Below are positions 1 to 52,455 of a DNA stretch of 52,455 nt, piece by piece. The notes below the pieces were generated by a model. That model did no database searches. It was not told the DNA's origin and saw nothing but the letters and a program-made list of their open reading frames with translations. The position numbers were made by a program, and so were the translations under genes. This DNA is from a virus (Duplodnaviria; Caudoviricetes), in IMG/VR virus record IMGVR_UViG_3300037962_000290, positions 1 through 52,455 of that record. One strand, given 5' to 3'. How positions within the stretch are numbered: the stretch's first letter is position 1; each line of letters begins with the position of its first letter.

Positions 1-268
1 TAAGCGTATTTGAGTCTGCTCCAACCAAACCTGTAATTTTAGACTTAACACTTGATGTAATAGATAACATGCTTATTGTTACACCACCTAAAGAAGAAGT
101 GTTAGTAGAAGAAGAAACCACTACCACGCAAGCAGATAGTGTATTAGATTTTAATGATCTTGATATAGATTATCTTGCAGAAGATTATTTAAAAGAAGAT
201 AGTCTTGAGTTTACAGAGTTAGATATAAATTATCTTGATGTAAATTACCTAGAAGATTTATTAAACGT
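1..268. repeat. Terminal direct repeat, left copy (assembly overlap marking a circular/permuted genome)
   Basis: 1-268 matches 52188-52455 except 6 substitutions (positions 89, 99, 101, 125, 179, 191). Confidence 0.95.
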
Positions 269-548
269 GTTAGATGCACTAGCAATAGATGAAGAAGAAG
301 ATGTGTTAGCTCAAGCTACGAGTACGCAAATAGCAGGAACTTTATTAGGCAAAGATCCTGACACACAAATAACAACATTTATAACAGGAAATGTAGTAAG
401 TTTACGTAGACAGGTTAATGAAAGTGTTAGAGTTGATCTAAATGGTAGTAATGCTTATACGGTAATTTTGATTCAAGACGGAGTTTCTAATATAATTAAA
501 ATTAACGGAGGGAGTGACAGCATTATTACTATCACTCAAAGTGATTAA
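3..548 (+). CDS. FecR-domain protein, C-terminal part (gene starts at 51617 and crosses the junction; about 372 aa in total)
   Basis: Frame is open from base 3 and continuous with the 51617 ORF through the terminal repeat. Acidic DxL-type repeats precede a beta-rich C-terminus; the stop abuts the ATG at 549. Confidence 0.85.
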   Translation, partial: SVFESAPTKPVILDLTLDVIDNMLIVTPPKEEVLVEEETTTTQADSVLDFNDLDIDYLAEDYLKEDSLEFTELDINYLDVNYLEDLLNVLDALAIDEEEDVLAQATSTQIAGTLLGKDPDTQITTFITGNVVSLRRQVNESVRVDLNGSNAYTVILIQDGVSNIIKINGGSDSIITITQSD

Positions 549-2315: not shown

Positions 2316-2523
2316 TAAAAAAATGACAGTTAATGATGTTGCAGAAAGACTAACAAAGTTAGAAACAATATCACATGAACGTTGGAAGACTGCATTTAAT
2401 GAGTTTTCTGATATAAAACAAGAAATAACCTATATTAATTCAACTATGAAAGCAGCCACCTTTGGCGTATTTGGCTTTCTTGGTGCTATTGGTATAGCTG
2501 TATTAACGAGTATATTAATATGA
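2308..2523 (+). CDS. Small coiled-coil protein with C-terminal TM helix (lysis-cassette membrane protein)
   Basis: ATG at 2308 overlaps the cyclase 3' end; ERLTKLE coiled coil; hydrophobic C-terminus. Confidence 0.65.
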   Translation: MVNKKMTVNDVAERLTKLETISHERWKTAFNEFSDIKQEITYINSTMKAATFGVFGFLGAIGIAVLTSILI

Positions 2524-2999
2524 AAGGAATACTTAAAAATATAGTTGGTGCTGTGGCTCCGACATTAGGTTCAGCTATGGGTGGTCCATTAGGCAATATG
2601 GCTATGGGTAAAATAGCAGAAGTATTAGGTGTATCTAATGATCAAAAATCTATACAACAAGCTATGCAAAGTGCTACACCTGAGCAAATGCTGGAACTTA
2701 AAAAAGCAGAACAAGAGTTTGAAGTGCAAATGAAAGAACTTGATGTAGATGTTTTTAAATTAGAAACACAAGACAAACAACATGCTAGAGGTATGTTTAG
2801 CAAAGACTGGACCGCAAGGATTATCGGTCTATTTACTATTGGTGGGTTCCTTGGTTATATATTTTTAGTTACCTTGCAGCCGCCAGAACAAAACTCAGAA
2901 GCATTAATAAACCTAGTCTTAGGTTATTTAGGAGGACTTGCAAGTGCAATTATTTCGTTTTATTTCGGAGCATCTCACACAAACGACAAAGGAGAGTAA
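2520..2999 (+). CDS. Putative holin
   Basis: Amphipathic N-terminus plus two C-terminal TM segments ending FYFG; directly upstream of the lysozyme. Confidence 0.65.
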   Translation: MKGILKNIVGAVAPTLGSAMGGPLGNMAMGKIAEVLGVSNDQKSIQQAMQSATPEQMLELKKAEQEFEVQMKELDVDVFKLETQDKQHARGMFSKDWTARIIGLFTIGGFLGYIFLVTLQPPEQNSEALINLVLGYLGGLASAIISFYFGASHTNDKGE

Positions 3000-3000
3000 G

Positions 3001-3444
3001 ATGAAAATATCCCAAGAAGGATTGTCTTTGATAAAAAAATTTGAAGGTTGCGAGCTTGAGGCCTATAAATGTGCAGCAGGAGTTTGGACTATAGGATATG
3101 GCTCTACAAAAGGAGTAAAAGAAGGAGATACAATAACTCAAGATGGAGCAGACAAATTATTAGCAGAAGAAATGCACGAATATGAAGGATACATAAATGA
3201 TATGGTCACTTCTGATTTAAAACAAAATGAATTTGATGCTTTGGTATCGTGGGTGTTTAATCTTGGACCTAGTAACTTATCTTCAAGTACTTTGTTAAAT
3301 AGATTAAACAACAAAATGTGGGATGATGTGCCGAATCAAATAAAGCGTTGGAACAAAGCTGGTGGTGAAGTTTTACAAGGCCTAGTAAGAAGAAGAGAAG
3401 CTGAAGCTTTGCTATTTGAAGGCAAAGAATGGCATGAGGTTTAA
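3001..3444 (+). CDS. Endolysin, GH24 phage lysozyme
   Basis: MKISQEGLSLIKKFEG...AYKCAAGVWTIGYG, FDALVSWVFNLG, GLVRRREAE; GGAG RBS before ATG 3001. Confidence 0.95.
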   Translation: MKISQEGLSLIKKFEGCELEAYKCAAGVWTIGYGSTKGVKEGDTITQDGADKLLAEEMHEYEGYINDMVTSDLKQNEFDALVSWVFNLGPSNLSSSTLLNRLNNKMWDDVPNQIKRWNKAGGEVLQGLVRRREAEALLFEGKEWHEV

Positions 3445-13856: not shown

Positions 13857-15980
13857 CTACTCTTCAAAGAATGTAGGATCAACAGCAACAAACCTTTTAG
13901 TCGGTCTACCTTTGCCCCCTACTTTTATATCTATTTCCTGGATCTCTCCAGCGTTTTTAAGTCTTTCTATAATCTCTTTAACCTCATGTGACTTCATGCT
14001 TCTAAATAATTCATGACGGTCAACCTCTCTTTTAGATATGCCCTCGCTCTCCCTAGACCTGATATAAGACAATACTTGCTTAATCTTAGCTTCGGTTGCA
14101 GAACTTGCTACTTTGTCTCTACAGGCTTCTATAAAGAGCATATCGTAATATCTAACATAATCTATTGCCCACTTAGTTACGTCCGCTGTAATCGTTGGTG
14201 TCTGAGCATTTGATGCTAAGGCACATATTAGAGCCAATCGCATAGCTTTTTCCTTAGAACGGCTTAGAAGCGGCTCTAGGCCATCTCTTTCTAATATATC
14301 TTGTCTTTGTACTATTTCACTAGCAAACTCTTGTAATAACTGCTCTGAATCGTGATCAAAGGCTAAAACCTCTTGCGGTATGTTATATTCAGAGTTATTT
14401 ACCATAGGGGCTGACAAGCCACCTCTATCTCTCCTAATATAATTTACCCAGTTGACTATTGTTAGTGGCGGGCTTTTTATCTTTTTAAGATTAGATACAC
14501 GTCTTGGTTCTTTAGACTCTATAACCATAAACCTATTTAAAAAACCGTCTGCAATACGACCAGAGTTCAGAGCTTTATAAAAGTTTTTGGGTACAGATAA
14601 ACCAACCATAGTTATAGCAGGTTTATGTGTCACACGATTCATAATCTTTTCTTTTATGTCTTCTACTTGTATGCCCATTAAAGAATAATTATCTGGTCTT
14701 AAGGTGCCGTGACATCTACCCCAAGCTTCCATAAGTGTTTGTATGCCGTCTTCTTTGTTAGTATTACCAGCTTGGCTTATGCTTTCTAATCTTTTACCAA
14801 ACTCGTCCATAATAGTTATATGTGTCGGTCTCATCTTCAATACTGAATGAACTGCACCACTAGAGGTATAGCCGTCTCCTACTATTAATTTATCGTGTTC
14901 AGAAGCGTTTAAAACTGCTTCAACAAAGGTTTTTATGTTTTCCTTGCCCTGTCCTGACTTAGCAATACACATGAAATACATACTAGAAAAGTTATTCATG
15001 TCTGTTTTAAATATCCTGCCACAAACAACACTAGCAAGTGATAGAGCGGCCACCAAAGATAATTCAGGTTGTGATACTTGTGCTATCTCCTCTGCATACT
15101 CATACATATCTTTTAGCAGTCCTGGTGGATTAAATAAATCATCAGGCGGTCTTATATCTTCTTTGGTTTGCACAAACAGAGGAGCTATCTGATTTTTTCT
15201 ATCGTGTGTTTTTTTTACATTATCTACAACTGAATCTATTTCTTGTTGTGGTAAAGGTGGTTTATTATCCCTATTCCAATTGTGTAAAAATATTCTTACA
15301 AAGTCTAGGTTAAGGTTTTTGGATATTAAATACCCCGCAATACGTGCAGCATTATCGTTTCTTGATCCCTCATTAACACCGTGTAAAGAAAAAGGAGCTG
15401 TTTTTTTAGCGGTATCATGTTTTGGTACTCCAGTTATTTTCTCAAACTCTTTTGGAGTAAAGTCTGGTAAATCTTTGTGATCAAAAATATCCCAACCTGG
15501 TAGAGGTATTGGCTTATACATTTGACCGTTTGCATGACGGTTATATGGAGCAATTATAAGTCCGCCAACACCCCTTAAATCTATCAACCTTTCAACAGGC
15601 GTATCGTTTGTTCTTCTTGTAGCAAAGGTGGTGTAATTTTCTGGATTATTGTAATAATAATGCATACCCTTACCAGTCCTAACTTTGTATGGACAGGTAG
15701 GTAAATTTTCTTCTACCCAAGTCATAGCTTCTGGAGAGTCTGCGTCTACAACAATAAATTTACCACAAACTAAAGCTACAACTAAGTTATCGCGATCAGT
15801 AAACCACTCCTCAACGGTGGATCTACAAGGCCTTTCGTTTTTGTATTGCTCCCAACCTTTTAAAAAAGGCGGAGGTTTTTTGTTAGATCTTTGTAGAGGT
15901 ACAACATTATATCCCTCATCATAATAAGCCAGTGCAATATCTAACGCTGCCTCTCCCTCAGACAGATTAAAATTAAACAT
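13857..15980 (-). CDS. Bifunctional primase-polymerase (Prim-Pol/PriCT) fused to a P-loop helicase-like domain
   Basis: VVDAD, TGKGMHYYY, IDLRGVGGLIIAP (Prim-Pol); EGSRND (PriCT); AKSGQGKE and IMDEFG (Walker A/B). Confidence 0.9.
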   Translation of the reverse strand: MFNFNLSEGEAALDIALAYYDEGYNVVPLQRSNKKPPPFLKGWEQYKNERPCRSTVEEWFTDRDNLVVALVCGKFIVVDADSPEAMTWVEENLPTCPYKVRTGKGMHYYYNNPENYTTFATRRTNDTPVERLIDLRGVGGLIIAPYNRHANGQMYKPIPLPGWDIFDHKDLPDFTPKEFEKITGVPKHDTAKKTAPFSLHGVNEGSRNDNAARIAGYLISKNLNLDFVRIFLHNWNRDNKPPLPQQEIDSVVDNVKKTHDRKNQIAPLFVQTKEDIRPPDDLFNPPGLLKDMYEYAEEIAQVSQPELSLVAALSLASVVCGRIFKTDMNNFSSMYFMCIAKSGQGKENIKTFVEAVLNASEHDKLIVGDGYTSSGAVHSVLKMRPTHITIMDEFGKRLESISQAGNTNKEDGIQTLMEAWGRCHGTLRPDNYSLMGIQVEDIKEKIMNRVTHKPAITMVGLSVPKNFYKALNSGRIADGFLNRFMVIESKEPRRVSNLKKIKSPPLTIVNWVNYIRRDRGGLSAPMVNNSEYNIPQEVLAFDHDSEQLLQEFASEIVQRQDILERDGLEPLLSRSKEKAMRLALICALASNAQTPTITADVTKWAIDYVRYYDMLFIEACRDKVASSATEAKIKQVLSYIRSRESEGISKREVDRHELFRSMKSHEVKEIIERLKNAGEIQEIDIKVGGKGRPTKRFVAVDPTFFEE

Positions 15981-28180: not shown

Positions 28181-29985
28181 ATTTTAGTGCTGGTGGATCA
28201 ACAGATATTGGTTCAATAACTCCAAGTACAAATAATAACTTAAATATAGGTAATATAGGTGCTGGTCTTGCATTATCTCAATTTTTACCCACTTCTACAG
28301 CTTTAAATTTAGCAAATAAAATAAATTTAACCCCAGCTCAATCTGCTTATTTAGCTAGTATGTTTGCACCTGGCTCAGGTGTTATAGATGCTTCTGGACA
28401 GTTTCCATCTTTTCCTGGTCGAGACGTTCCTTTAGAACAGGCATTTGCTGGTGAACCTATGCCAAGCATTAAAGAAAATATAGCAGCAGGCGGTATAGAT
28501 AGATATCTATTTGCACCATTACAAGGTTTGGGGGTTTTAAGCGATGCAGCTTATGGCATACCTGTAGCAGGACCACTTATTGCTAGCGGTCTTAAAACTC
28601 CTCTCGTACTAGCTAGTATGGTTTCTGGAATAGCTAAAGCTGGCAAATCAAGTAAATCTTTACCAATACAAAAAGAAATGTTTAGGATTCAAGGGGATGT
28701 ACAAAATAAATTAAACCCAACGCTCAAATATGATTTAGAAGGTATCCCGATAAATTATGAAAAATTAACAGAAGGCCAAAAAAAACGCAGAGGATATTCT
28801 TATGAACAAAAATATAATCAAATAGCTTTAAATGTAGACGAAATAGATGAAATAGCAGATTGGGTTAGTGGAGATTTAAGCAAAAAAAATAAATCTCAAG
28901 AGTATTTAGAAGATATAAATCCATTTATTGAAAATTTAGAAAAAACTGGATTAACATCTAATTCACAAGCTTTTTTACGTCAGTTTGCTGATAAGAATGG
29001 CAACATTAAAGTATACAGATATCTTAGTATAGGTGAAGGTGGTGGGAAAAAGCTCATGCCAGAAAAAGGTATAGTAAGCACTACCATAAATCCAAATCAT
29101 GCTGTAGAACAAGGATTAATTGAAAAGACAAAAAATATTACTGTAGCTACAAAAGATTATGTGCAACCTGATATGATGGCAGATCCATTTGAAAAACAAA
29201 TAGCATTTGAAAAAGCATTAAAAGAAGGTACTTTAAAAAGAAAAAAATTAATACGTGATACTTATATATTAGAGTACGATATACCTGTAGAAAAAGTTAA
29301 AGGTTATATGCCTGCTGTATATGCATCAATACCTGAAAGAGCTAAAGATAATTATGTTCGTAACATTGCTGAAGATAATTATGAAGTTGACCAAATAATG
29401 GAGGAATTAGCAGAGTATTCAGATGTGGATGTAGAAGATATTGCGAGAGATGACGCAATAGATGAAGTAATTCGTAAGTATCAATTACGAGAAGATTTAG
29501 ACTATAGTATACATGCGCCTGACGAGTTTGAAGTAATAGCTAATTTAAAAAATGTTAAACCAACTGCAACATATAAAGTGTCTGATAAAAATACAATCGA
29601 GGCTGTTAAAGGATTAAAAGGAGGCGGTGAGGTAAGTTCTATATCAAATGTTGGGTCCATAACCCCTATACCTCCATCAGAAATGCGTGAGGCTTTTGGT
29701 GGTCCTTTTTATCAGATGATGAATCCTGGTGCTCAACGTATGGTTGATGCTATGGGTTTACGTGGTGCGGGCATGAAAGGATTGTTATCTGAAGCTATAG
29801 GACCAGGAGGTAAATTTAAGCTAAGTAAGGCTGCTATGGCTAAAATAAAACCTTTATTACAGCAAAGAAAAAGAGAGTTAGACTTATCTACTAATTATGA
29901 TGCAGTAGAAAGAACAGCCGCACAAAATAGAGTCAAACAAATTGAAAAACAAATAGATAAAATAATAGCAGATGACCAATCCTAA
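28177..29985 (+). CDS. Probable -1 frameshift extension containing an ADP-ribosyltransferase-like domain (annotated ORF 28360-29985)
   Basis: Frame open from 28102 with no ATG until 28360; VYR, STT and EFE motifs. Confidence 0.55.
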   Translation, partial: LNFSAGGSTDIGSITPSTNNNLNIGNIGAGLALSQFLPTSTALNLANKINLTPAQSAYLASMFAPGSGVIDASGQFPSFPGRDVPLEQAFAGEPMPSIKENIAAGGIDRYLFAPLQGLGVLSDAAYGIPVAGPLIASGLKTPLVLASMVSGIAKAGKSSKSLPIQKEMFRIQGDVQNKLNPTLKYDLEGIPINYEKLTEGQKKRRGYSYEQKYNQIALNVDEIDEIADWVSGDLSKKNKSQEYLEDINPFIENLEKTGLTSNSQAFLRQFADKNGNIKVYRYLSIGEGGGKKLMPEKGIVSTTINPNHAVEQGLIEKTKNITVATKDYVQPDMMADPFEKQIAFEKALKEGTLKRKKLIRDTYILEYDIPVEKVKGYMPAVYASIPERAKDNYVRNIAEDNYEVDQIMEELAEYSDVDVEDIARDDAIDEVIRKYQLREDLDYSIHAPDEFEVIANLKNVKPTATYKVSDKNTIEAVKGLKGGGEVSSISNVGSITPIPPSEMREAFGGPFYQMMNPGAQRMVDAMGLRGAGMKGLLSEAIGPGGKFKLSKAAMAKIKPLLQQRKRELDLSTNYDAVERTAAQNRVKQIEKQIDKIIADDQS

Positions 29986-31441
29986 TTTTTCGCATTTATC
30001 TGATTCAGAAATACGCGAAACTCTTATGTTGCAAGAGCGTCTTGCTCTAATAGAACAGCAAAATAAATGTCAAGAATCTTTTTTGGATTTTGTTAATTAC
30101 ATGTGGCCAGAGTTTATTTGTGGCAGACACCATAAAATTTTTGCACAAAAGTTAGAAGAAGTTGCTAATGGTACTTGTAAACGTTTGATTGTTAATATGC
30201 CACCAAGACACACCAAGTCTGAGTTTTGCTCCACCTATTTCCCTGCTTGGATTATGGGTAAACAGCCCAACCGTAAAATAATGCAGACCACTCATACAGG
30301 CGAGCTAGCTGTAAGGTTTGGTCGTAAAGTTAGAAACATGATGGATACCGAAGAATATAAAAAAATATTTAGTAAGGTAGAACTACAAGCCGATTCAAAG
30401 TCTGCAGGACGTTGGGAAACTAACAAAGGGGGCGAATATTTCGCAGCAGGTGTAGGTGGAGCTATAACAGGTCGTGGTGCTGATTTGTTAATTATTGACG
30501 ATCCACACTCAGAACAAGATGCACTTAGTCCTACAGCTATGGAGGCATGTTGGGAATGGTACACCTCTGGACCTAGACAACGTTTACAACCAGGCGGAGC
30601 TATCATATTGGTTATGACTAGGTGGAGTTCACTAGATCTTACAGAAAAGTTATTAGAGGCGCAAAAGGAAGAGTTAGCTGACCAGTGGGATATTGTAGAG
30701 TTTCCTGCTATTTTTGAGGATTCTGGTAATCCTTTGTGGCCTGAGTTTTGGAATATAGACGAACTTAGTAAAGTAAAAGCTTCACTCCCTACACAAAAAT
30801 GGAACGCCCAGTGGATGCAAACCCCAACTGCAGAAGAAGGTTCTATAATTAAACGTGAGTGGTGGAACGCTTGGGAATATGATTCCTTGCCGCCTGTAAA
30901 ATATATTATTCAAAGTTATGATACTGCCTACAGTAAAAAGCAAAATAGTGACTACTCTGCTATTTCTACTTGGGGTGTATTTAATCCTACACCTGATGAC
31001 CCAGATTCTATTATTTTGCTAGATGCACAAAAGGGTAGGTGGGACTTTCCTGAATTAAAACGGGTAGCTTACGAAGAATATAAGTATTGGGATCCTGACA
31101 TGACTTTGGTTGAAGCAAAAGCATCTGGTACGCCACTTACACATGAATTGCGTAGATTAGGTATTCCTGTCGTAAATTACTCTCCGACCAGAGGACACGA
31201 CAAATCAACGAGGATGCACTCTGTTGCACCTATATTTGAATCTGGGTTAGTGTGGGCACCACAAAAAAAGTTTGCAGAAGATATGATTGAAGAATGTGCA
31301 GCCTTTCCTTTTGGTAAAAATGACGATTTATGTGATACTATGTCTCAAGCCCTAATGCGTTTTAGGGAGGGCGGTCTGGTTTCGCTACATGATGATTATG
31401 CAGACGAAGAAAGAGCGGTAATTAAAAGAGCGTATTACTGA
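29972..31441 (+). CDS. terL: Terminase large subunit
   Basis: NMPPRHTKSE, GRGADLLIIDDPH, QSYDTAY, VEAKASG, FPFGKNDDLCD. Confidence 0.97.
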   Translation: MTNPNFSHLSDSEIRETLMLQERLALIEQQNKCQESFLDFVNYMWPEFICGRHHKIFAQKLEEVANGTCKRLIVNMPPRHTKSEFCSTYFPAWIMGKQPNRKIMQTTHTGELAVRFGRKVRNMMDTEEYKKIFSKVELQADSKSAGRWETNKGGEYFAAGVGGAITGRGADLLIIDDPHSEQDALSPTAMEACWEWYTSGPRQRLQPGGAIILVMTRWSSLDLTEKLLEAQKEELADQWDIVEFPAIFEDSGNPLWPEFWNIDELSKVKASLPTQKWNAQWMQTPTAEEGSIIKREWWNAWEYDSLPPVKYIIQSYDTAYSKKQNSDYSAISTWGVFNPTPDDPDSIILLDAQKGRWDFPELKRVAYEEYKYWDPDMTLVEAKASGTPLTHELRRLGIPVVNYSPTRGHDKSTRMHSVAPIFESGLVWAPQKKFAEDMIEECAAFPFGKNDDLCDTMSQALMRFREGGLVSLHDDYADEERAVIKRAYY

Positions 31442-31761
31442 TGACAGTAGAAAATTTTGAAAAAGACAATACATTCAATAAAAATTTTTCTTTTTTAAAA
31501 AATTGGCATGAAGAAAATTACACTTTATTACCAAAAGGTAGTAAAAACAAAGACACTTCTATGCAGTTAGGTACGTTTGAGTTTGATGGTATTACATATA
31601 TTTTACCAACTTATAAAAAAGGTAAAGGTAAGATTGGATCTAATGAGTTTTTAGATGAAATTAAGACTGGCAAAATATTAGGATATAATTCTGACAGTGC
31701 TGCACAAAAAGATCTTGAAAAAATTAGAGCAAAAATTTTAGGTAAGCAAAATGGCAATTGA
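31441..31761 (+). CDS. Hypothetical protein between terL and portal
   Basis: TGATG coupling; overlaps the portal start. Confidence 0.6.
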   Translation: MTVENFEKDNTFNKNFSFLKNWHEENYTLLPKGSKNKDTSMQLGTFEFDGITYILPTYKKGKGKIGSNEFLDEIKTGKILGYNSDSAAQKDLEKIRAKILGKQNGN

Positions 31762-34213
31762 AAAACAAGACAATACCCCAGAACCAATAGATTCTTTACA
31801 AGGTACTGAAGATATGACGGTTGCTGTGGAGGCAATAGAAGAAGCAAACGAAGAGGAATTTGAATTACAAGAAGACGGTAGTGCTATTTTAGGTGGTATG
31901 GATGACATGCCAATAGATGATGGCTTTGGATCTAATTTAGCTGAGTTTTTGGACGACAACCAACTAAATACAATATCTATAGAATTAACAGCAGGTATTG
32001 AAAAAGATAAATCCTCCAGAGAAGACTGGGAAAAAACTTATACAGACGGTCTTAAATACCTAGGCATGAAGTTTGACCAAGAAAGGTCAGAGCCTTTTGC
32101 TGGTGCATCTGGTGTCATACATCCCTTGTTAGGTGAAGCTGTCACAAATTTCCAAGCTCAAGCCTACAAAGAGTTATTACCTTCAGGTGGTCCCGTAAAA
32201 ACTCAAGTAGTTGGCAAATATGATTCAATAGTAGAAGAACAAGCGCAAAGAGTTGCTGATTTTATGAACTATCAAATTGTGCATGTTATGGAAGAGTTTG
32301 ATGAAGAGTTAGATCAAATGCTTTTTTATCTACCACTAGCAGGTTCAGCGTTTAAAAAAATATATTATGATGAAAACCTTGGTCGTGCTGTATCTAAATT
32401 TATAGCACCAGAGGATTTAATTGTCCCTTATTTTTCAACTGACCTAGAAACCTGTCCTAGAATAACAAATGTAGTAAAAATGCCTGAAAATGAGCTCAAA
32501 AAGCTGCAAGCTATAGGTTTTTACAAGAAAGTTGACGTAAGTAATAGTTATTCTCCTGAAAATAGTCAAGTACAAGAAGAAATAGATGAGTTATCAGGCC
32601 TTGAACCTAGTTATGATCTGGGTGAAGTATCTGTTTTATACGAAGTCCACTGTAATTTAGATATAGATGGTTTTGAAGATGTGGATGAAAACGGTAACAT
32701 GACTGGTGTAAAGCTACCTTATATCGTAACTATAGATGCTAGTAGTAATAGTGTCTTAAGTATTTACCGTAATTATGCAGAAAATGATCCTTTACGTAAA
32801 AAAATAGAGTATTTTGTGCACTTTAAGTTTTTACCTGGCCTAGGATTCTATGGATTTGGCCTAACACACATGATAGGCGGTCTTTCAAAGGCTTCTACAA
32901 GCATATTAAGGCAGTTAATTGACGCTGGTACCCTTGCAAACTTACCTGCAGGATTTAAAACGCGTGGAATTAGAATTAGAGACGAAGATACACCATTACA
33001 ACCAGGTGAATTTAGAGATGTTGATGCTCCAGGTGGTATTTTAGGGCAAGCTATACAGCCATTACCTTTTAAAGAGCCTAGTCAAACACTTTTAAGCTTA
33101 TTAAATTTATTGGTAAATGCAGGCCAAAGGTTTGCATCTATTGCTGAAATAAACGTAGGTCAAGGCAATCCAAATGCCCCTGTTGGAACAACACTAGCCT
33201 TGCTTGAAAGATCTACAAAAGTTTTGTCTGCCATACATAAAAGACTACATAACTCACAAAAGAAAGAATTTCGTATTCTAGCTAATGTATTTCAAGAATA
33301 TTTACCGCAAGAGTATCCGTATAACGTAGCAAATGCTAATAACAGTATTAAATTAACTGATTTTGATGAAAGAGTTGATATTTTTCCAATATCTAATCCA
33401 GATATATTTAGTCAATCACAACGTATTGCTATGGCACAAGAAATGATGCAATTAGTGCAATCTAACCCAGAAGTACACGGCGCAGCAGGTATTTATGAGT
33501 CATACAAGCGTATGTATGCTGCAATTGGAGTAGATAATATAGAACAAATATTAATGCCGCCGCCATCAACTGAACCACAACCACAAGAAGCTGGTTTTGA
33601 AAATAACGCATTATTACTGGGTAATCCTGCTAAGGCTTTTCCAGAACAAAACCATGACGCACATGTTGCAACACACATGAGTTTGTTAAATACACCTCCT
33701 GTTCAAATGAACGCACAGGTACAAGCTTTAATACATGCACATATTATGGAGCATTTACAAATGAAAGCTGATATTGTAGCCCAGCAACAAATGCCACCAG
33801 AGGCTATGCAACAGTTCCAACAGTTACAACAGCAAGCTCAACAAGTTAGCCCAGCTGAACAGCAAGCTATTATGCGAGAGGCTAATAATTTGTTAGCACA
33901 ATTTTCTGCTCCAATCATGTCTCAGCTTATTGCCGAATATACATCTAAAATAGCATCTCCTGATGACGAAGATCCATTAGTAGCTATAAGAAAACAAGAG
34001 TTAGCTTTAAAAGGACAGGAATTGGCTATGGAGCAGCAACAATTTATAGCACAAGAAAATAGAAAAGCACAAGACGCTGCAACCAGAGCTCAAATAGATC
34101 GAGAAAGAATTGACGCATCAGAAGAAATAGCTGAAATGCGTGATGAAACAGCTAGAGCTAGACTAGATCAACAACGTGAATTTAAAAATTTAGATATACT
34201 TACTAGAAATTAA
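31751..34213 (+). CDS. Portal protein (P22-like long portal)
   Basis: 820 aa downstream of terL; HPLLGEAV, GSAFKKIYYD, PGLGFYGFGL; long C-terminal coiled coil. Confidence 0.9.
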   Translation: MAIEKQDNTPEPIDSLQGTEDMTVAVEAIEEANEEEFELQEDGSAILGGMDDMPIDDGFGSNLAEFLDDNQLNTISIELTAGIEKDKSSREDWEKTYTDGLKYLGMKFDQERSEPFAGASGVIHPLLGEAVTNFQAQAYKELLPSGGPVKTQVVGKYDSIVEEQAQRVADFMNYQIVHVMEEFDEELDQMLFYLPLAGSAFKKIYYDENLGRAVSKFIAPEDLIVPYFSTDLETCPRITNVVKMPENELKKLQAIGFYKKVDVSNSYSPENSQVQEEIDELSGLEPSYDLGEVSVLYEVHCNLDIDGFEDVDENGNMTGVKLPYIVTIDASSNSVLSIYRNYAENDPLRKKIEYFVHFKFLPGLGFYGFGLTHMIGGLSKASTSILRQLIDAGTLANLPAGFKTRGIRIRDEDTPLQPGEFRDVDAPGGILGQAIQPLPFKEPSQTLLSLLNLLVNAGQRFASIAEINVGQGNPNAPVGTTLALLERSTKVLSAIHKRLHNSQKKEFRILANVFQEYLPQEYPYNVANANNSIKLTDFDERVDIFPISNPDIFSQSQRIAMAQEMMQLVQSNPEVHGAAGIYESYKRMYAAIGVDNIEQILMPPPSTEPQPQEAGFENNALLLGNPAKAFPEQNHDAHVATHMSLLNTPPVQMNAQVQALIHAHIMEHLQMKADIVAQQQMPPEAMQQFQQLQQQAQQVSPAEQQAIMREANNLLAQFSAPIMSQLIAEYTSKIASPDDEDPLVAIRKQELALKGQELAMEQQQFIAQENRKAQDAATRAQIDRERIDASEEIAEMRDETARARLDQQREFKNLDILTRN

Positions 34214-46324: not shown

Positions 46325-48070
46325 ATGGCAACTTATGTAAATGATTTAAGGTTAAAAGAAATAGCTACAGGTGACGAATCAGGAACCTGGGGCACATCTA
46401 CGAACACAAATTTAGAGCTAATAGCAGAAGCTTTTAGCTTCGGCACAGAGGCGATAACTACTAACGCTGATACTCATACAACCACGATAGCTGATGGATC
46501 TACTGATCCTGGCAGATCAATTTATCTTAAATACACAGGTGCTCTTGATAGTGCTTGTACTATTACCATAGGACCGAACACAGTGTCAAAACTATGGTTC
46601 ATAGAAAATGCAACTACAGATAGTGGATCTTCTGGACCTTATAACATCGTTATTTCTCAAGGTAGTGGTGCTAATGTAACTATACCTAACGGTCATGTGA
46701 AAGCTATATATTCTGATGGTGCTGGTTCTGGTGCAGCTATGGTTGATGCCTTTACTGATTTAAACTTAGCAGGAACTACAACAGTAGATGATTTAACAGT
46801 ATCTGATGATTTGTCAGTTACAGATGATGCAACTATAGGAGGTACATTAGGAGTAACAGGTGCCGTAACAGCCAACGCAGGCGTGTCAATAGATAATATA
46901 ACTATAGACGGAACAGAAATAGATTTATCTTCTGGCGACCTCTCAATAGATGTAGCTGGAAACTTACAAATAGATGCAGATGATAATGGAGAAATTAGAT
47001 TTTTAGATGGTGGTACTCAATATGCAGCAATTAAAAAAGATGGCAATAATGCTCTTTTCCAATCTATTGTAGCTGATGGCGATTTTGTAATACAGGGTAT
47101 TGATGGTTCTTCATTTATATCTGCTCTTACTTTTGATATGTCAGATGCAGGAGCAGCACAATTTAATAGTAATGTGGGTATAGGCACAGCACCAACCTCT
47201 ACATTACATCTTAAAAATAGTAATAGGGACCTAAACTTTACACTTGCAGATAGTCCTGCTACAGGAGATGCAGGAGTTCAAATAACAGCAGGTGCTAGTG
47301 ATTTTTTAGGTATTTTTGCTGGTTCTAGTAATGGTGAGTTATTGCTTGGTTCTAATGGTACTGAAAAAGCTCGCATTAATAGTTCAGGCTCTATTGGCGT
47401 GGGGACAACTTCGCCGAGTGGTGGCTCGGTTGGGGGTAAGGTTTTACATCTTGTAAATTCAGGTGCTACAGCATCAGTAAGAGTTGATAGAAGTGATAGC
47501 TCAACTACAGGTACAATATCTTTACTAGATGCTAACTCTACACATGGTTTATTTGGTACTGGTAGTAAACCTATGGCATTTTCTACGGATAGTACAGAAA
47601 GAATGCGTATAGATAGTTCTGGATTTTTGCAAATAGCCACAACTGGTAAAAGTGGGCGAATTAATTTACAACCAAATCCTAGTAATAATCATTTTGTTGA
47701 ATTTTATACTACTGCTGATGGTAAGGTTGGAGAAATCAATACTACAGGTGGTACAACAACAAATTATGTAACAAGTTCAGACTACAGATTAAAAGAAAAT
47801 GTAGACTATACATGGGATGCAACTACAAGATTAAAACAATTAAAACCTGCAAGATTTAATTGGATATCTGATGAAACAAACACATTAGTTGAGGGTTTTT
47901 TAGCTCACGAAGTTTCAGACATAGTTCCAGAAGCTATATCAGGTAAAAAAGATGCAGTTGATGGTCAAGGTAATCCTGAATATCAAGGAATAGATCACAG
48001 CAAACTTGTACCTCTTTTAACTAAAGCTATACAAGAACTAGAAGCAAGAATAACAGCTTTAGAAAGCTAA
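46325..48070 (+). CDS. Tail fibre with C-terminal intramolecular chaperone (peptidase S74)
   Basis: SGTWGTSTN.NL N-terminus; VGIGT and ERMRIDSSG repeats; TSSDYRLKEN, GFLAHEV, KLVPLLTKAIQEL. Confidence 0.92.
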   Translation: MATYVNDLRLKEIATGDESGTWGTSTNTNLELIAEAFSFGTEAITTNADTHTTTIADGSTDPGRSIYLKYTGALDSACTITIGPNTVSKLWFIENATTDSGSSGPYNIVISQGSGANVTIPNGHVKAIYSDGAGSGAAMVDAFTDLNLAGTTTVDDLTVSDDLSVTDDATIGGTLGVTGAVTANAGVSIDNITIDGTEIDLSSGDLSIDVAGNLQIDADDNGEIRFLDGGTQYAAIKKDGNNALFQSIVADGDFVIQGIDGSSFISALTFDMSDAGAAQFNSNVGIGTAPTSTLHLKNSNRDLNFTLADSPATGDAGVQITAGASDFLGIFAGSSNGELLLGSNGTEKARINSSGSIGVGTTSPSGGSVGGKVLHLVNSGATASVRVDRSDSSTTGTISLLDANSTHGLFGTGSKPMAFSTDSTERMRIDSSGFLQIATTGKSGRINLQPNPSNNHFVEFYTTADGKVGEINTTGGTTTNYVTSSDYRLKENVDYTWDATTRLKQLKPARFNWISDETNTLVEGFLAHEVSDIVPEAISGKKDAVDGQGNPEYQGIDHSKLVPLLTKAIQELEARITALES

Positions 48071-48837: not shown

Positions 48838-48995
48838 GTTGGTTAGAAAAAATGTGGAGCAAAGTTACTGGTACTGAAAAAGTAAAAGTAAGAGCTAGAA
48901 ACAAAAAAGGACATTATGTGGCTGACGATAAATCTACACCTGATGTTAACGAAGCCTGGACTACTAAAAGAGTTAAAAAATCTAAAGAGTCATAA
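48834..48995 (+). CDS. Small basic protein (53 aa, not in ORF track)
   Basis: ATGA and TAATG coupling on both sides; RARNKKGHYVADDKSTPDVNEAW. Confidence 0.7.
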   Translation: MSWLEKMWSKVTGTEKVKVRARNKKGHYVADDKSTPDVNEAWTTKRVKKSKES

Positions 48996-49375
48996 TGGCT
49001 AAGTCACCTGATGCGTTTGTTTACAACGCTACATTAGAACGGATTGTAGATGGAGACACATTTGATTGTTGTCTTGATCTTGGTTTCGATGTGAAGTTAC
49101 ATAAACAACGTGTCAGACTTGCAGGTATAGACACACCCGAAAGCAGGACTAGAGATCTTGCAGAAAAGAAACTAGGGCTAGCTGCAAAAGCAAGACTAAA
49201 AGAACTATGTATTGGTAATTTTAAGGTCAAATCGTTAGGTAAAGGCAAGTACGGTCGTATTTTAGGCATACCTTATACAGAAGACGGTAGAGATATATGC
49301 CAAGTGCTTATTAAAGAAGGTCATGCTGTAGAATATGACGGAGGCAAAAAGAAAAAAGTTTGGGGTGACTACTAA
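48995..49375 (+). CDS. Staphylococcal nuclease (SNase/thermonuclease)-like protein
   Basis: IVDGDT, VRLAGIDTPES, GKYGRILG, EGHA. Confidence 0.9.
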   Translation: MAKSPDAFVYNATLERIVDGDTFDCCLDLGFDVKLHKQRVRLAGIDTPESRTRDLAEKKLGLAAKARLKELCIGNFKVKSLGKGKYGRILGIPYTEDGRDICQVLIKEGHAVEYDGGKKKKVWGDY

Positions 49376-49725
49376 TGGAGTCAGCCGTAACTTTAATACA
49401 AGAGGTTGGTTTTCCTATTGCCGCAGCACTTGGACTTGGTTGGTTTATTTATAAACTTATTATGCGTATTGTTGACGGTATGGAAACTAAACTTGATACC
49501 GTGGATGAAAAAGTAGAAAGTCAAATAGCTGCAATAGAAGAAAGGCTTGGTACAAAACTTGATTCACAACACGGTATTTTGGTAGCATTAATAGACAGAG
49601 TGCGTAGTTTAGACAACGAAATAATACGACAAGACACTTTAATTAAAACTATATTAGGAGTGCCTAATTTAATAGACAGTGGAAAAATAGCTAAGGCAGG
49701 TAGAGATGACCAACGAAAAGACTGA
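49375..49725 (+). CDS. Membrane-anchored coiled-coil protein preceding csgF
   Basis: GFPIAAALGLGWFIY TM segment; LIDRVRSLDNEIIR. Confidence 0.7.
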   Translation: MESAVTLIQEVGFPIAAALGLGWFIYKLIMRIVDGMETKLDTVDEKVESQIAAIEERLGTKLDSQHGILVALIDRVRSLDNEIIRQDTLIKTILGVPNLIDSGKIAKAGRDDQRKD

Positions 49726-50191
49726 AAATATTTGGATATATAGAATTGCATTTGCTTTAGGTATTTTCTTTTTTCTTGCAATTTTAACTAATCCTTTATG
49801 GTCTGATACTATTACACATAAATTTAAGTCACCAAGTTTTAACGGTGTAGGAACATCTAGTCATTACCTCACAATAGAAAATCAACAATACACTCGTAAG
49901 CTTACGATCAAAGAAGAAATAAAAGCATTACAAGATGAAATTAAGAGAGAAAAAGAAAACTCTACTCTTGCAAGGTTTATGCGTAATCTTGAGTCTAGGG
50001 TTTACGCAGAATTATCAAGACAGTTAGTAAATAACTTATTCGGAGAAACACCGCAAAGCGAAGGTGTCATCACTTTAGAAGGCAATACTATTGAATACAC
50101 AAGTGATGGTGTAACTTTAACCCTTAAAATTACTGAGGCGGATGGAACAATTACCGAAATCGTTATACCTATTGGCACTTTTACTTTCTAG
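49706..50191 (+). CDS. csgF: Curli assembly protein CsgF-like
   Basis: Signal peptide, then HKFKSPSFNG (cf. CsgF FxNPxFGG), F...LESRVYAELS..L, and terminal TEIVIP; upstream of csgG. Confidence 0.8.
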   Translation: MTNEKTENIWIYRIAFALGIFFFLAILTNPLWSDTITHKFKSPSFNGVGTSSHYLTIENQQYTRKLTIKEEIKALQDEIKREKENSTLARFMRNLESRVYAELSRQLVNNLFGETPQSEGVITLEGNTIEYTSDGVTLTLKITEADGTITEIVIPIGTFTF

Positions 50192-51041
50192 TTGTTCTAC
50201 ATTTGATCAACTGGAAGATACATACGAACAAAGGTTTTCCAAAGACGTAGCAACAATTCAAGACCTACAATCAGCAGAACTTAAAAATGTTGCCATACCA
50301 GAGGTTAGTCCTGTAGTTGCTGTGTATCCTACATCATTTACAGATCAAACAGGACAGCGTAAAAGCAATAGCGAGTTTGCTTTATTTAGCACAGCCATAA
50401 CACAACAACCAAACGCCTTACTTATTAGAGCTTTAAAACACGCAGGAGACGGCAAGTTTTTTAGGGTTGTAGAAAGGGTGGGATTAGACAACTTAACAAA
50501 AGAAAGACAGCTTATTAGATCAGCACGAGAGCAATCAACTAACGAAGAAGAAAAAAAGAAAGCACTAAGACCTTTGTTGTTCGCAGGTATTTTAATAGAG
50601 GGTGCTGTTATATCTTACGAGGCAAACCTTGAAAGCGGTGGAGCAGGAGCTAGGTACCTGGGCATAGGCAAAAGTGTTATGTATAGAGAGGATAACATAA
50701 CAATTAGTATGCGTATGGTATCTGTTGCCACAGGAGAGGTATTGTTAGAGGTACTAAGTCAAAAAACAATATTTAGTTATGGCAAGTCTGAAGATGTATT
50801 TAGGTTTGTTGAAGCTGAAAGCGAGCTAGTAGAAATAGAACTAGGCAACGCAAGAAATGAGTCATCAACCATAGCTTTAATGAAAGCTATAGAAGGAGGT
50901 GTGCTAGAAATCATAAATACTGGTTATGATCGTGGTTTCTGGATTTTACAAAATAATAACCAAGGAGTAGAATTAAATAATGAAATTAAAATTGATAAGC
51001 CTAATTGTGATGCTGACTGCGTTGACGACATACGCGGCTGA
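50142..51041 (+). CDS. csgG: Curli secretion channel CsgG (outer-membrane lipoprotein)
   Basis: Lipobox LLLSSC; F.DQTGQRK, STAITQ, FRVVERVGLDNLTKERQLIRS, LLFAG.LIEG, SGGAGARYLGIG, VATGEVL. Confidence 0.93.
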   Translation: MEQLPKSLYLLALLLSSCSTFDQLEDTYEQRFSKDVATIQDLQSAELKNVAIPEVSPVVAVYPTSFTDQTGQRKSNSEFALFSTAITQQPNALLIRALKHAGDGKFFRVVERVGLDNLTKERQLIRSAREQSTNEEEKKKALRPLLFAGILIEGAVISYEANLESGGAGARYLGIGKSVMYREDNITISMRMVSVATGEVLLEVLSQKTIFSYGKSEDVFRFVEAESELVEIELGNARNESSTIALMKAIEGGVLEIINTGYDRGFWILQNNNQGVELNNEIKIDKPNCDADCVDDIRG

Positions 51042-51708
51042 CAACGAGATATATGTAGATCAATCTGGTACTGGAGCTAATATAGACCTAGAACAACTAG
51101 GTATTTCTAATATTATAGGTGGATTAAATTCAACTGCTGGAGATCTAAATCCTTTTGATTTAGATGGTAATAGCATGACACTTGATATAAACATGATTGG
51201 TGCAACCAATAAATTTCTTGGTGATATATTTGCTGATAACTTTACTGGGTTTTATGAGTTTGATGGCGGTACTAATACCTTTACTATTCAAGTTGACCCT
51301 ACAGATACCTATAGTGCTGATGGATCAAACCAATATGTAGATGTGACAGGTAGTGGTAATACTTTTACTTTAAATCAAGGCACTACAGCATTAGCAGCTT
51401 CTCTTGATTTAGACTGGATAATAAACGGTTCTAATAACACAGTAACATCAAACATTAATATAGATGGTGCTACTAATTATATGGATATAGACGGCTCTGA
51501 TAATACAGTTACTTATACAGGTACAGGAGTTACAGCCTCAGCAGGTGGATATTTCTATCTTGATCACACAGGTGGCTCAAGAACTTTTAATATTTCACAA
51601 CTAAGCACCCAAGATAATGACTGGCTTAAAATTATATCCGTTTCTGGCACTGCTGCTTCTACCGTTTGTGTTGTTCAAAACGACCAAGGTACAAGCACAA
51701 GTTGTTGA
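50980..51708 (+). CDS. Secreted curlin-like beta-solenoid protein (CsgA/CsgB-like)
   Basis: Signal peptide; repeats IYVDQSG, IDLEQLGISN, VDVTGSGN, FTLNQG, IINGSNN, IDGSDN; Asn/Gly/Thr/Asp-rich. Confidence 0.7.
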   Translation: MKLKLISLIVMLTALTTYAADNEIYVDQSGTGANIDLEQLGISNIIGGLNSTAGDLNPFDLDGNSMTLDINMIGATNKFLGDIFADNFTGFYEFDGGTNTFTIQVDPTDTYSADGSNQYVDVTGSGNTFTLNQGTTALAASLDLDWIINGSNNTVTSNINIDGATNYMDIDGSDNTVTYTGTGVTASAGGYFYLDHTGGSRTFNISQLSTQDNDWLKIISVSGTAASTVCVVQNDQGTSTSC

Positions 51709-52455
51709 TATTGGAGATATATCTGAACTAAACGGTACGGCTCAAATTGTCAGAGACAGGCCTTATGATGCAAATTTAAAGTTTGCTATTCAAAGTAATG
51801 ATGAAGCCATAACCAAAGATGGCCGTATGGCTATTACTTTTCTTGATGATTCTACCGTAAAACTTACAGAACATAGTCAGTTACTTATTGACGAGTACAT
51901 ATATGATCCAGATCCAAGCAAAGCAAAAATGGCTCTTACCTTTGGCCTTGGTACAGCTAGGTTTATTACAGGCAATTTAAACCGTATAGATAAACAAAAC
52001 ATAACTCTCAAAACACCAACAGCTAACATAGCAATACGTGGCACTGATTTTACGGCTACAGTTGATGAATTAGGGCGTAGCCTTATTATTTTGCTACCAG
52101 ACGCTCTAGGGCTTTCTAGTGGCGAAATAGAGGTAGTTACTGCTATGGGCACCGTTATACTAAACAAACCCTACGAAGCCACTACAGTAAGCGTATTTGA
52201 GTCTGCTCCAACCAAACCTGTAATTTTAGACTTAACACTTGATGTAATAGATAACATGCTTATTGTTACACCACCCAAAGAAGAAATATTAGTAGAAGAA
52301 GAAACCACTACTACGCAAGCAGATAGTGTATTAGATTTTAATGATCTTGATATAGATTATCTTGCGGAAGATTATTTGAAAGAAGATAGTCTTGAGTTTA
52401 CAGAGTTAGATATAAATTATCTTGATGTAAATTACCTAGAAGATTTATTAAACGT
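51617..52455 (+). CDS. FecR-domain periplasmic protein, N-terminal part (not in ORF track; continues across the junction to 548)
   Basis: Manual translation: MTGLKLYPFLALLLLPFVLF...ITFLDDSTVKLTEHSQLLIDEY...GTARFITG...KTPTANIAIRGTDF (FecR signature). Confidence 0.88.
   Translation, partial: MTGLKLYPFLALLLLPFVLFKTTKVQAQVVDIGDISELNGTAQIVRDRPYDANLKFAIQSNDEAITKDGRMAITFLDDSTVKLTEHSQLLIDEYIYDPDPSKAKMALTFGLGTARFITGNLNRIDKQNITLKTPTANIAIRGTDFTATVDELGRSLIILLPDALGLSSGEIEVVTAMGTVILNKPYEATTVSVFESAPTKPVILDLTLDVIDNMLIVTPPKEEILVEEETTTTQADSVLDFNDLDIDYLAEDYLKEDSLEFTELDINYLDVNYLEDLLN
52188..52455. repeat. Terminal direct repeat, right copy
   Basis: Matches 1-268. Confidence 0.95.

Follow-up and report, generated by a model that had tools for sequence, protein, structure and literature searches.

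Why should a phage carry the genes of a curli-type outer-membrane channel directly beside a receptor-type adenylate cyclase? The question is raised by IMG/VR virus record IMGVR_UViG_3300037962_000290, whose 52,455 nucleotides (nt), called the window here, make up a complete marine phage genome (CheckV completeness 97%). An earlier note, made from the DNA alone, had described six consecutive overlapping or abutting genes in it, for a transmembrane (TM) protein, CsgF, CsgG, a curlin-like protein, a FecR-domain protein and a CHASE2 cyclase, and had proposed that they form a relay across the envelope. The open reading frames (ORFs), the Pfam assignments and the closure of the circle bear out this gene order. 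Our preferred reading, held with a little less than even confidence, is that the cassette is a two-part envelope device that acts as a coupled sensor, with a channel/fibre/FecR unit on one side and a CHASE2 cyclase on the other. The predicted features on which this reading is built are the following.

49375-49725, plus strand: TM116, a membrane/coiled-coil protein of 116 amino acids (aa), first gene of the cassette, with one hydrophobic segment at about residues 11-33
49706-50191, plus strand: CsgF homologue, channel-associated curli factor (Pfam PF10614, 1.8e-13, 51 bits against a cut-off of 25.8)
50142-51041, plus strand: CsgG homologue, outer-membrane lipoprotein channel (Pfam PF03783, 3e-44)
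50980-51708, plus strand: secreted divergent curlin-repeat protein, 242 aa (beta-solenoid model; sub-threshold Curlin_rpt match)
51617-52455, plus strand: 5' part of the gene for the FecR-domain periplasmic protein (Pfam PF04773, 2.1e-9, 38 bits against a cut-off of 24); continues at 269-548
1-548, plus strand: 3' part of the FecR-protein gene (acidic Leu/Asp-rich linker and C-terminal beta-rich domain)
549-2315, plus strand: receptor-type class III adenylate cyclase (N-terminal TM segment, periplasmic CHASE2, TM cluster, cytoplasmic catalytic domain)
52188-52455, no strand: terminal direct repeat of window positions 1-268 (98% identity), which marks a circularly closed assembly

Since positions 1-268 recur at 52188-52455, the molecule closes to about 52,187 nt, and closure makes 51617-52455 and 1-548 one FecR gene. 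This gene is unbroken (372 aa) on the independent contigs L004 and L005 (for example L005:6882-7997; compared loci carry L numbers throughout). The end repeat is imperfect, with six mismatches at repeat positions 89, 99, 101, 125, 179 and 191, one of which replaces an Ile of the FecR protein by Val. A mixed population assembled into one circular contig is the probable origin, and would account, together with the imperfect repeat, for the 'linear' class in IMG/VR. Across the closure the cassette consists of six plus-strand ORFs, of which successive ones overlap by 20, 50 (csgF with csgG), 62 and 92 nt and the last two abut at 548/549. It measures 5,128 nt, or 9.8% of the 52,187-nt circle, in agreement with the roughly 5 kb and 10% given in the earlier note, and its GC content is 35.2% compared with 35.5% for the window. 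The CsgF, CsgG, FecR, CHASE2 and Guanylate_cyc families all score over their curated cut-offs in the cassette ORFs.

Curli genes in phages have been reported before. A curli cluster was described in pelagimyophages, with uptake or 'sibling capture' as proposed roles (Zaragoza-Solas et al., 2020; PMC7029224), and a lysis-timing pore was proposed for phage Melnitz, with no clumping of infected cells reported (Buchholz et al., 2022; PMC9004378). In podophages, the cassette was found in 9 of 80 HTVC023P-type genomes in the order 'histidine kinase' ('HK'), CsgF, CsgG, CsgA/B, FecR, an optional second CsgA/B and adenylate cyclase; it was described as syntenic with the myophage module, four of its genes had alphaproteobacterial affinity, it occurred at all 65 GOV2.0 stations, and metatranscriptome matches were reported (Wittmers et al., 2022; PMC9599517). 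The newness implied by the earlier note is thus lost, as the whole set, FecR and cyclase included, was published for podophages in 2022 (PMC9599517). The window cassette is another member of the already known viral type VIII secretion system (T8SS)/curli module described in 2020-2022 (PMC9599517; PMC7029224; PMC9004378), and nothing essential differs. Gene order is the same, and the module takes up 7.8 +/- 1.6% of the genome in the published podophages and 9.8% here (PMC9599517).

The records of HTVC008M and Methylophilales phage Melnitz both contain, in this order, CsgF, CsgG, a curlin, a FecR or hypothetical protein, a second curlin-type gene and a cyclase. Identity between one structural protein of the window and its counterparts in HTVC027P, HTVC023P and 023Pt_psg01 is 33-35%, which makes the window phage a distant relative of the HTVC023P group; with phage DSL-LC04 it is 40%. 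A DNA-level search of the cassette against cultured phages gave no match. Compared with the published reading, the first gene has no kinase domain here, FecR groups with the secretion genes and not with the cyclase, and the sensor of the cyclase is CHASE2, a word absent from the main text of PMC9599517. Our literature searches returned no paper linking CHASE2 with CsgG; on functional studies of phage CsgG that came later, they gave one review besides the papers already known. The present analysis adds to the published picture the CHASE2 identification, the fusion of two bacterial units and a phage-specific C-terminal half of the FecR protein. It also adds co-divergence of four genes with independent exchange of the cyclase, retention of the set through rearrangement, very long contigs included, and the lack of a kinase domain in the first gene.

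Genes that function together are expected by the relay proposal to travel together, and co-conservation across genomes had been set beforehand as a refuting test; the genes are kept together in four phage samples. Counts were made on loci with enough flanking sequence, and the samples are related lineages, not independent draws. For the first sample, the cyclase served to select 80 viral contigs (65-98% identity, out of at least 592 relatives). In these podophage loci, FecR was present in 48/48, curlin in 45/45, CsgG in 38/38, CsgF in 37/37 and TM116 in 36/36, and 8 of 72 had room for another gene between FecR and cyclase. Eighty podophage contigs chosen by the window CsgG had TM116 in 66/66, CsgF in 69/69, curlin in 72/72, FecR in 67/67 and cyclase in 47/47. 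The third sample (80 HTVC008M-like contigs chosen by the CsgG of that phage) gave 74/74 for TM116, 76/76 for CsgF, 59/59 for curlin, 44/44 for FecR and 18/19 for the cyclase. The fourth consisted of 80 metagenome contigs picked with a distant FecR representative and gave 64/64 for curlin, 50/50 for CsgG and 43/44 for CsgF; the cyclase was found in 22/22, between -99 and 5,835 nt after FecR and inverted in three, and TM116-like genes in 15/16, always in two copies and often on the far side and the other strand. That the set persists despite rearrangement and in different types of phage argues strongly that these genes work together.

Rearranged versions come from the distant metagenome relatives (contigs L353-L432, for example L375, L382, L393, L395, L401 and L411), where the cyclase is sometimes inverted. 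In L361 (11094-16073) the interval between FecR and cyclase holds a Curlin_rpt gene, an unknown gene, a metallophosphoesterase, a GT4 glycosyltransferase and a RimK-type ATP-grasp ligase, which are predicted to be accessory genes inserted inside the cassette. The full cassette also lies on contigs of 337-364 kb (L403, L418 and L422), whose flanking ORFs match PHROG families including metallophosphoesterase, endonuclease and phrog_4339; by these matches the contigs possibly represent very large phages.

Selection acts on the whole cassette, and co-divergence separates it into parts. All six genes are under purifying selection, with a median ratio of non-synonymous to synonymous substitution (dN/dS) of 0.07-0.18 (0.18 for CsgF and 0.13 for CsgG), compared with the endolysin at 0.20 and a structural gene at 0.24, values that are rough because dS is near saturation (1.0-1.4). 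Co-divergence was expressed as the Spearman rho of pairwise protein distances over 66 unique complete podophage cassettes. CsgF, CsgG, curlin and FecR are mutually correlated (rho 0.76-0.85, or 0.64-0.85 with FecR split into halves), with the caution that the sequences are related, so that the values cannot be treated as independent. The C-terminal half of FecR tracks curlin (rho 0.84) and CsgG/CsgF (rho 0.75). The cyclase is weakly correlated with this four-gene block (rho 0.19-0.30), which counts against tight coupling, and TM116 correlates with no cassette gene (rho 0.06-0.22). Physical distance does not explain the pattern, because FecR abuts the cyclase gene and CsgF is two genes from FecR. 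The best correlate of CHASE2 is the N-terminal domain of FecR (rho 0.43, Mantel p 0.002), above the cyclase's own TM region (0.37) and the physically nearer C-terminal half of FecR (0.27); the value for CHASE2 and the catalytic domain is only 0.14. Our reading is that CsgF, CsgG, curlin and FecR would form a co-adapted four-protein unit accompanied by a freely exchanged cyclase, and the CHASE2 values are a modest sign that the FecR domain and CHASE2 may fit each other.

Bacterial relatives were compared for the cyclase, the channel and FecR. For the cyclase, one genome per prokaryotic species was scanned with the cyclase alignment as query, and the best 80 loci were examined; they are 27-35% identical and mostly from Alphaproteobacteria, many from Bradyrhizobium. 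Hidden Markov models built from the phage proteins found CsgG, CsgF, curlin and TM116 in 0/80 of these loci at distances up to 10 kb. A FecR-domain ORF is present in 26/80, nine of which have it immediately 5' of the cyclase, abutting it in the same orientation. Five genomes holding the closest cyclases gave no match to the CsgG family (0/5). In Bradyrhizobium-type loci (L085, L086, L088, L090, L095, L097 and L099) the same-strand frame just upstream of the CHASE2 cyclase spans about 1,400-2,100 codons from stop to stop and has a FecR domain, which we read as a giant-protein version of the FecR/CHASE2 pairing.

From the channel side, phage CsgG has matches at E<=1e-5 in 19 of 401 alphaproteobacterial genomes, seven of them strong (36-46% identity). 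Within +-10 kb of the seven strongest, csgF is adjacent in 7/7, as in the phage, whereas FecR, CHASE2 cyclase and TM116 are each found in 0/7. In one of these alphaproteobacterial loci (L193), the neighbours of csgF-csgG are Curlin_rpt genes. FecR matches at E<=1e-8 were found in 72 of 401 Pseudomonadota genomes, and the 1.5-kb flanks of 30 bacterial FecR loci held CsgG in 0/30 and CHASE2/cyclase in 2/30. By these comparisons the cassette is a predicted phage-side fusion of a curli unit (csgF-csgG-curlin) and a FecR/CHASE2-cyclase pair, two units not found together in the bacteria sampled.

CsgG matches the solved Escherichia coli CsgG at 5.6e-49 over residues 46-273. Its lipobox is LSSC, a lipobox-type motif is present in 32/34 relatives, and 30 of them have LSSC. 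The constriction-loop stretch differs from that of E. coli; the window version is identical in 24/34 sequences (window included), and one more has a one-residue variant, so the pore lining is conserved among phages but unlike the model system. In CsgF the N-terminal motif FK[SN]PSF[NS]G occurs in 32/33 relatives and presumably resembles the constriction peptide of E. coli CsgF. Comparison of CsgF with the sequences of solved structures returned nothing relevant. The phage set agrees with the T8SS in having a CsgG lipoprotein with a lipobox and an adjacent CsgF, and differs in having no match to gammaproteobacterial-type CsgE: PF10627 has no match in the window at E<=0.1, a search in which the E. 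coli control was found. Alphaproteobacterial curli loci are also reported to be without CsgE (PMC9599517).

The curlin-like protein is assigned by way of its relatives. The ORF has no Pfam match at E<=0.1. The sole match of the Curlin_rpt model (PF07012) in the window lies inside it at 51040-51102 and scores 15 bits, under the cut-off of 20.7. When 30 podophage orthologues are combined in a profile, it matches the proteins at the corresponding position in HTVC008M and Melnitz with an hhalign probability of 99% (E 4e-19 and 2e-17, respectively), and the Melnitz protein is over the Pfam Curlin_rpt cut-off (26 bits), so homology of the window protein to curlin follows by transitivity. Its AlphaFold2 (AF2) model (predicted local distance difference test, pLDDT, 77; predicted template modelling score, pTM, 0.75) is all-beta with regular short strands. 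Foldseek gave no match of this model in the PDB at E<=0.001. In a wide structural search, residues ~20-240 aligned with parallel beta-helices (best Z 15.6, root-mean-square deviation 2.7 over 198 residues); further matches were many unrelated beta-helices at Z 10-14, and CsgA was not among the 50 matches listed, an absence that carries no weight. The curlin profile found chance-level antibody chains among sequences of solved structures, and against a bacterial curlin it aligned the leader and the common N-terminal motif only (probability 41%). The window protein is modelled as a divergent curlin-repeat beta-solenoid and is a candidate, not an established, member of the curlin family. It is likely to be the secreted substrate of the CsgG-CsgF channel.

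The window has no second curlin gene after FecR. Many relatives do have a second Curlin_rpt gene there, for example L001, L002 and L361. In HTVC008M the 'hypothetical protein' between FecR and cyclase (L001:4592-5914) has a PA14 domain (2.7e-6) and curlin repeats (5.2e-8), and could be a carbohydrate-binding fibre component.

The FecR protein begins with a hydrophobic leader (residues 1-22), which is followed directly by the FecR domain. Residues 225-300 include 24 D/E and 1 K/R. All FecR matches in the 401 Pseudomonadota genomes stop by query position 244, and the C-terminal half has no bacterial counterpart there; in the genomes searched it appears to be phage-specific. Pfam shows the FecR domain only, an Atlas search with residues 200-372 gave no usable match, and the AF2 model of the full protein (pLDDT 35.7) yields no fold for the C-terminal half. 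A curlin-repeat identity for the FecR C-terminus was considered and is unsupported, since hhalign of the curlin and FecR profiles aligned leader peptides only (probability 6.6%).

The cyclase matches CHASE2 (PF05226, 2.8e-25, residues 11-309) and Guanylate_cyc (PF00211, 1.5e-20, residues 412-586) and has hydrophobic segments at residues 1-23 and 291-344. An alignment of 53 phage and bacterial sequences shows no variation at D418, K458, D462, D528, N531 and R535. From class III cyclases, we take D418 and D462 to be the metal residues, K458 and D528 to specify adenine, and N531 and R535 to serve the transition state. The earlier note had called both the cyclase catalytic residues and the CsgG lipobox intact, and the six invariant positions and the LSSC motif agree with it. 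The window cyclase is 34% identical to that of HTVC008M (97% of its length) and 31% identical to that of Melnitz. The Melnitz cyclase (L002:5917-7965) has Ser at the position of Asn531, alone among five aligned, and a C-terminal extension of about 70 residues; by its sequence it may work differently or be weakened. The cyclase gene is also a local diversity hot spot, as the cyclases of L008, L014 and L006 are 83-84% identical to that of the window with changes along the whole gene, while their FecR (95-98%) and downstream membrane protein (95-99%) hardly differ from those of the window. This diversity looks like allele exchange by recombination under purifying selection.

TM116, the first gene, has been labelled a 'histidine kinase' in podophages (PMC9599517). 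A kinase of this type would have a HATPase_c catalytic and a HisKA dimerisation domain. No Pfam family is over cut-off for TM116, and HATPase_c has no match anywhere in the window, while 14/14 control genomes match. The size of 116 aa and these two results leave the label without domain support, and TM116 is not a histidine kinase by any sequence test applied here. It matches phrog_18771 (unknown function, 1.8e-16) and, weakly, a holin phrog (E 0.007). TM116 falls in virus-only Atlas clusters without a Pfam family and shows lead-level likeness to coiled-coil and lysis proteins (Holin_BhlA and Mu releasin, 0.86-0.87). In distant metagenome relatives two TM116-like paralogues accompany the cassette, often past the cyclase and in the opposite orientation; the window has one TM116 gene.

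The genes on either side of the cassette, together with landmarks elsewhere in the genome, are as follows.

48995-49375, plus strand: SNase-type nuclease gene (Pfam PF00565, 2.2e-13), which abuts the cassette start
2251-2523, plus strand: small membrane protein with hydrophobic segments, in the lysis region adjoining the cyclase
2520-2999, plus strand: small membrane protein of 159 aa (phrog_1544) with hydrophobic segments, lysis region
2998-3444, plus strand: endolysin (phrog_7, 1e-60)
13857-15980, minus strand: primase
29972-31441: terminase large subunit
31751-34213: portal
46325-48070: tail fibre

Tail-fibre gene, cassette, lysis genes and structural genes follow one another in a single co-directional block. 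Promoter and terminator scans were at or near chance level, with no convincing promoter or terminator internal to the block, and from these two features we infer late co-expression of the cassette. In 68 loci of the first sample the cyclase is followed at 0.5-1.5 kb by an endolysin, which is missing in 3 loci with room for it (>2.5 kb of downstream sequence). In five relatives (L034, L051, L053, L058 and L060) an SNase-type copy, 50-54% identical, is found downstream instead, between the membrane proteins and the endolysin; the SNase-type nuclease gene is relocated or replaced among relatives.

Several bacterial systems offer a comparison. FecR (COG4254-type)/CHASE2 pairs in bacteria consist, as in the phage, of a secreted FecR-domain protein next to an inner-membrane CHASE2 receptor. 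They differ in that their FecR partners have neither the acidic linker nor the C-terminal domain of the phage protein, many being LysM-FecR or giant multi-domain proteins, in that their outputs are often histidine kinases, and in that no curli genes lie nearby. One such case is presumably SMc02177 of Sinorhizobium meliloti, which we take from its locus number to adjoin cyaD1. SMc02177 has a FecR domain (PMC5498481), and a FecR gene stands beside a CHASE2 sensor in the Burkholderia 'BiofilmReg' operon (PMC5192318). A working precedent for a relay from the outer membrane to cyclic AMP (cAMP) is NsrA with CyaK/CyaD1/CyaD2, which is cellular, not viral, and has a known receptor, Clr. NsrA is not known to belong to the CsgG family. 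It is an outer-membrane beta-barrel required for the response of the CHASE2 cyclases CyaK, CyaD1 and CyaD2 of S. meliloti to an external protein (PMC7529298; PMC13001267). The FecA-FecR-FecI system has the periplasmic FecR domain (PF04773) in common with the cassette, and the general logic of an outer-membrane protein that talks to it. FecA-FecR-FecI has an extracytoplasmic function (ECF) sigma factor and an anti-sigma domain, whereas the phage protein has a leader peptide, the window has no match to Sigma70_r2 (ECF sigma), and the partner would be CsgG/CsgF rather than a TonB-dependent transducer. Having no ECF sigma, and a leader in place of the anti-sigma domain, the cassette is not a Fec-type system.

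By analogy with these systems, trans-envelope signalling is plausible, and the coupled sensor that we prefer would work as follows. CsgG and CsgF would form a curli-type outer-membrane channel in a host without one, with the curlin-repeat beta-solenoid protein as its cargo. The FecR protein would be the periplasmic member of the channel/fibre unit through its acidic, beta-rich C-terminal half, in contact with CsgG or curlin, and may stand in for the missing CsgE-type periplasmic factor. Its FecR domain would face CHASE2 and report on the condition of channel, fibre or envelope, and the inner-membrane cyclase, of alphaproteobacterial type, would make cytoplasmic cAMP to match. The cAMP might act on a host regulon or on the timing of lysis. 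A bolder form of this idea, which we consider possible but doubtful, is a phage-built trans-envelope sensor with the channel and curlin as its surface end, a two-faced FecR link (C-terminal half to the channel/fibre, N-terminal domain to CHASE2) and cAMP as its output, which could sense contact with a surface, attack by a second phage or damage to the envelope and set the time of lysis accordingly. T4 lysis inhibition is the natural comparison; if the idea is true, the sensor would be a functional analogue of it built from borrowed bacterial signalling parts.

The relay of the earlier note is partly supported. Of the three conditions that the note named as refuting, two were checked, loss of co-conservation and a chimeric host fragment, and neither holds; as to the third, an inactive or partner-independent cyclase, the catalytic residues are all kept. 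In its favour are the retention of the gene set, the bacterial FecR/CHASE2 pairing and the NsrA precedent. Several observations weigh against it and against the coupled sensor, in addition to the weak correlation of the cyclase and the cautions on rho and dN/dS given above. The window encodes no cNMP-binding (cyclic nucleotide-binding) domain, so the cAMP receptor, if any, would be the host's, and a literature search for a Pelagibacter cAMP receptor returned nothing useful. The host itself is not established, as the best cultured matches of the structural protein (33-40%) infect Gammaproteobacteria, Roseobacter and Pelagibacter. Within the podophage lineage, recombination affects the cyclase separately from the four-gene block: compared with the window, L008 and L014 are 96-98% identical in FecR and 96-99% in the downstream 159-aa protein, but only 83-84% in the cyclase. 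As the cyclase is swapped in near-identical backgrounds, any FecR-CHASE2 interface is generic or absent. Cyclase is reported 'frequently', not always, in podophage modules, which means that the four-gene unit can do without it (PMC9599517), and one myophage-type locus (L341) has no cyclase within 5.2 kb. For contact between FecR and CHASE2 the sole sign is indirect, the co-divergence described above. A complex prediction with CHASE2 residues 21-296 and FecR residues 29-232, both with alignments, gave a score of 0.00, from which nothing is concluded.

Other explanations of the cassette start from the same genes. In plain curli biogenesis, amyloid fibres on the infected cell would serve aggregation, 'sibling capture' or a superinfection shield, and the FecR protein, the small membrane protein and the cyclase would only regulate expression; a fibre-building reading of the module has been published (PMC9599517; PMC7029224). 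We judge this unlikely, though a serious contender. The phages conserve all three of CsgG, CsgF and a curlin-repeat protein, Curlin_rpt genes adjoin the nearest csgF-csgG pairs of cellular genomes (L193), many relatives have a second such gene after FecR, with room for one in 8/72 podophage loci, and the four-gene block can occur without cyclase (PMC9599517). However, the sampled bacterial curli loci have neither FecR nor CHASE2 (0/7), yet phages keep both almost always. A periplasm-facing receptor cyclase would also be an odd regulator for an operon without a transcription factor, in a window with no Sigma70_r2, HATPase_c or cNMP-binding domain. Melnitz-infected cells are reported not to clump (PMC9004378), and the window protein is under the Curlin_rpt cut-off. 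If, instead, CsgG-CsgF, perhaps with the small membrane protein, were a gated pore or secretin-like device for lysis timing (PMC9004378), the signal for that timing would come from the cyclase. The position of the podophage cassette, directly upstream of two small membrane proteins and an endolysin, fits this proposal, as do the nearest named look-alikes of TM116, which are lysis proteins at lead level. We nevertheless give it little credence: an outer-membrane channel alone cannot depolarise the inner membrane, the conserved curlin and FecR proteins have no role in it, the HTVC008M and Melnitz cassettes lie between replication and baseplate/tail genes and not beside annotated lysis genes, and metagenome loci place the cassette among unrelated genes.

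An ungated CsgG pore that admits nutrients or cofactors has been suggested as well (PMC7029224; PMC9599517). The lack of a CsgE match in the window and a constriction-loop string unlike that of E. coli CsgG are consistent with such an uptake channel, but purifying selection on CsgF, the curlin-repeat protein, FecR and the cyclase is left unexplained by it, and we think it very improbable. The earlier note had also allowed that the block might be a chimeric host fragment misjoined to phage DNA. The imperfect 268-nt end repeat is the only oddity of this kind. The same gene order is found on scores of independent contigs, and many have the same junctions to SNase upstream and lysis genes downstream. 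GC is equal to that of the genome, 29-30 of 30 bins of the stretch are covered by contigs of four runs, drawn from four studies, contigs bridge both the window end region and the FecR/cyclase border, and the cultured phages HTVC008M and Melnitz carry the cassette. An assembly artefact is refuted by this evidence for practical purposes.

Under the coupled-sensor reading or any of its biological rivals, phages of very abundant streamlined marine bacteria spend about a tenth of a small genome on a channel and a second-messenger enzyme, which the hosts are without according to the papers cited above. The set survives transfer between phage families as well as rearrangement, which argues that it serves an important step of infection in the commonest virus-host pairs of the ocean. 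The partners to be tested are now more sharply drawn: FecR belongs with the channel/fibre genes, the cyclase is of the CHASE2 type that is often paired with FecR in bacteria, and the supposed kinase is not a kinase. Cultured pairs of cassette-bearing phage and host exist for such work, HTVC008M with Pelagibacter and Melnitz with OM43.

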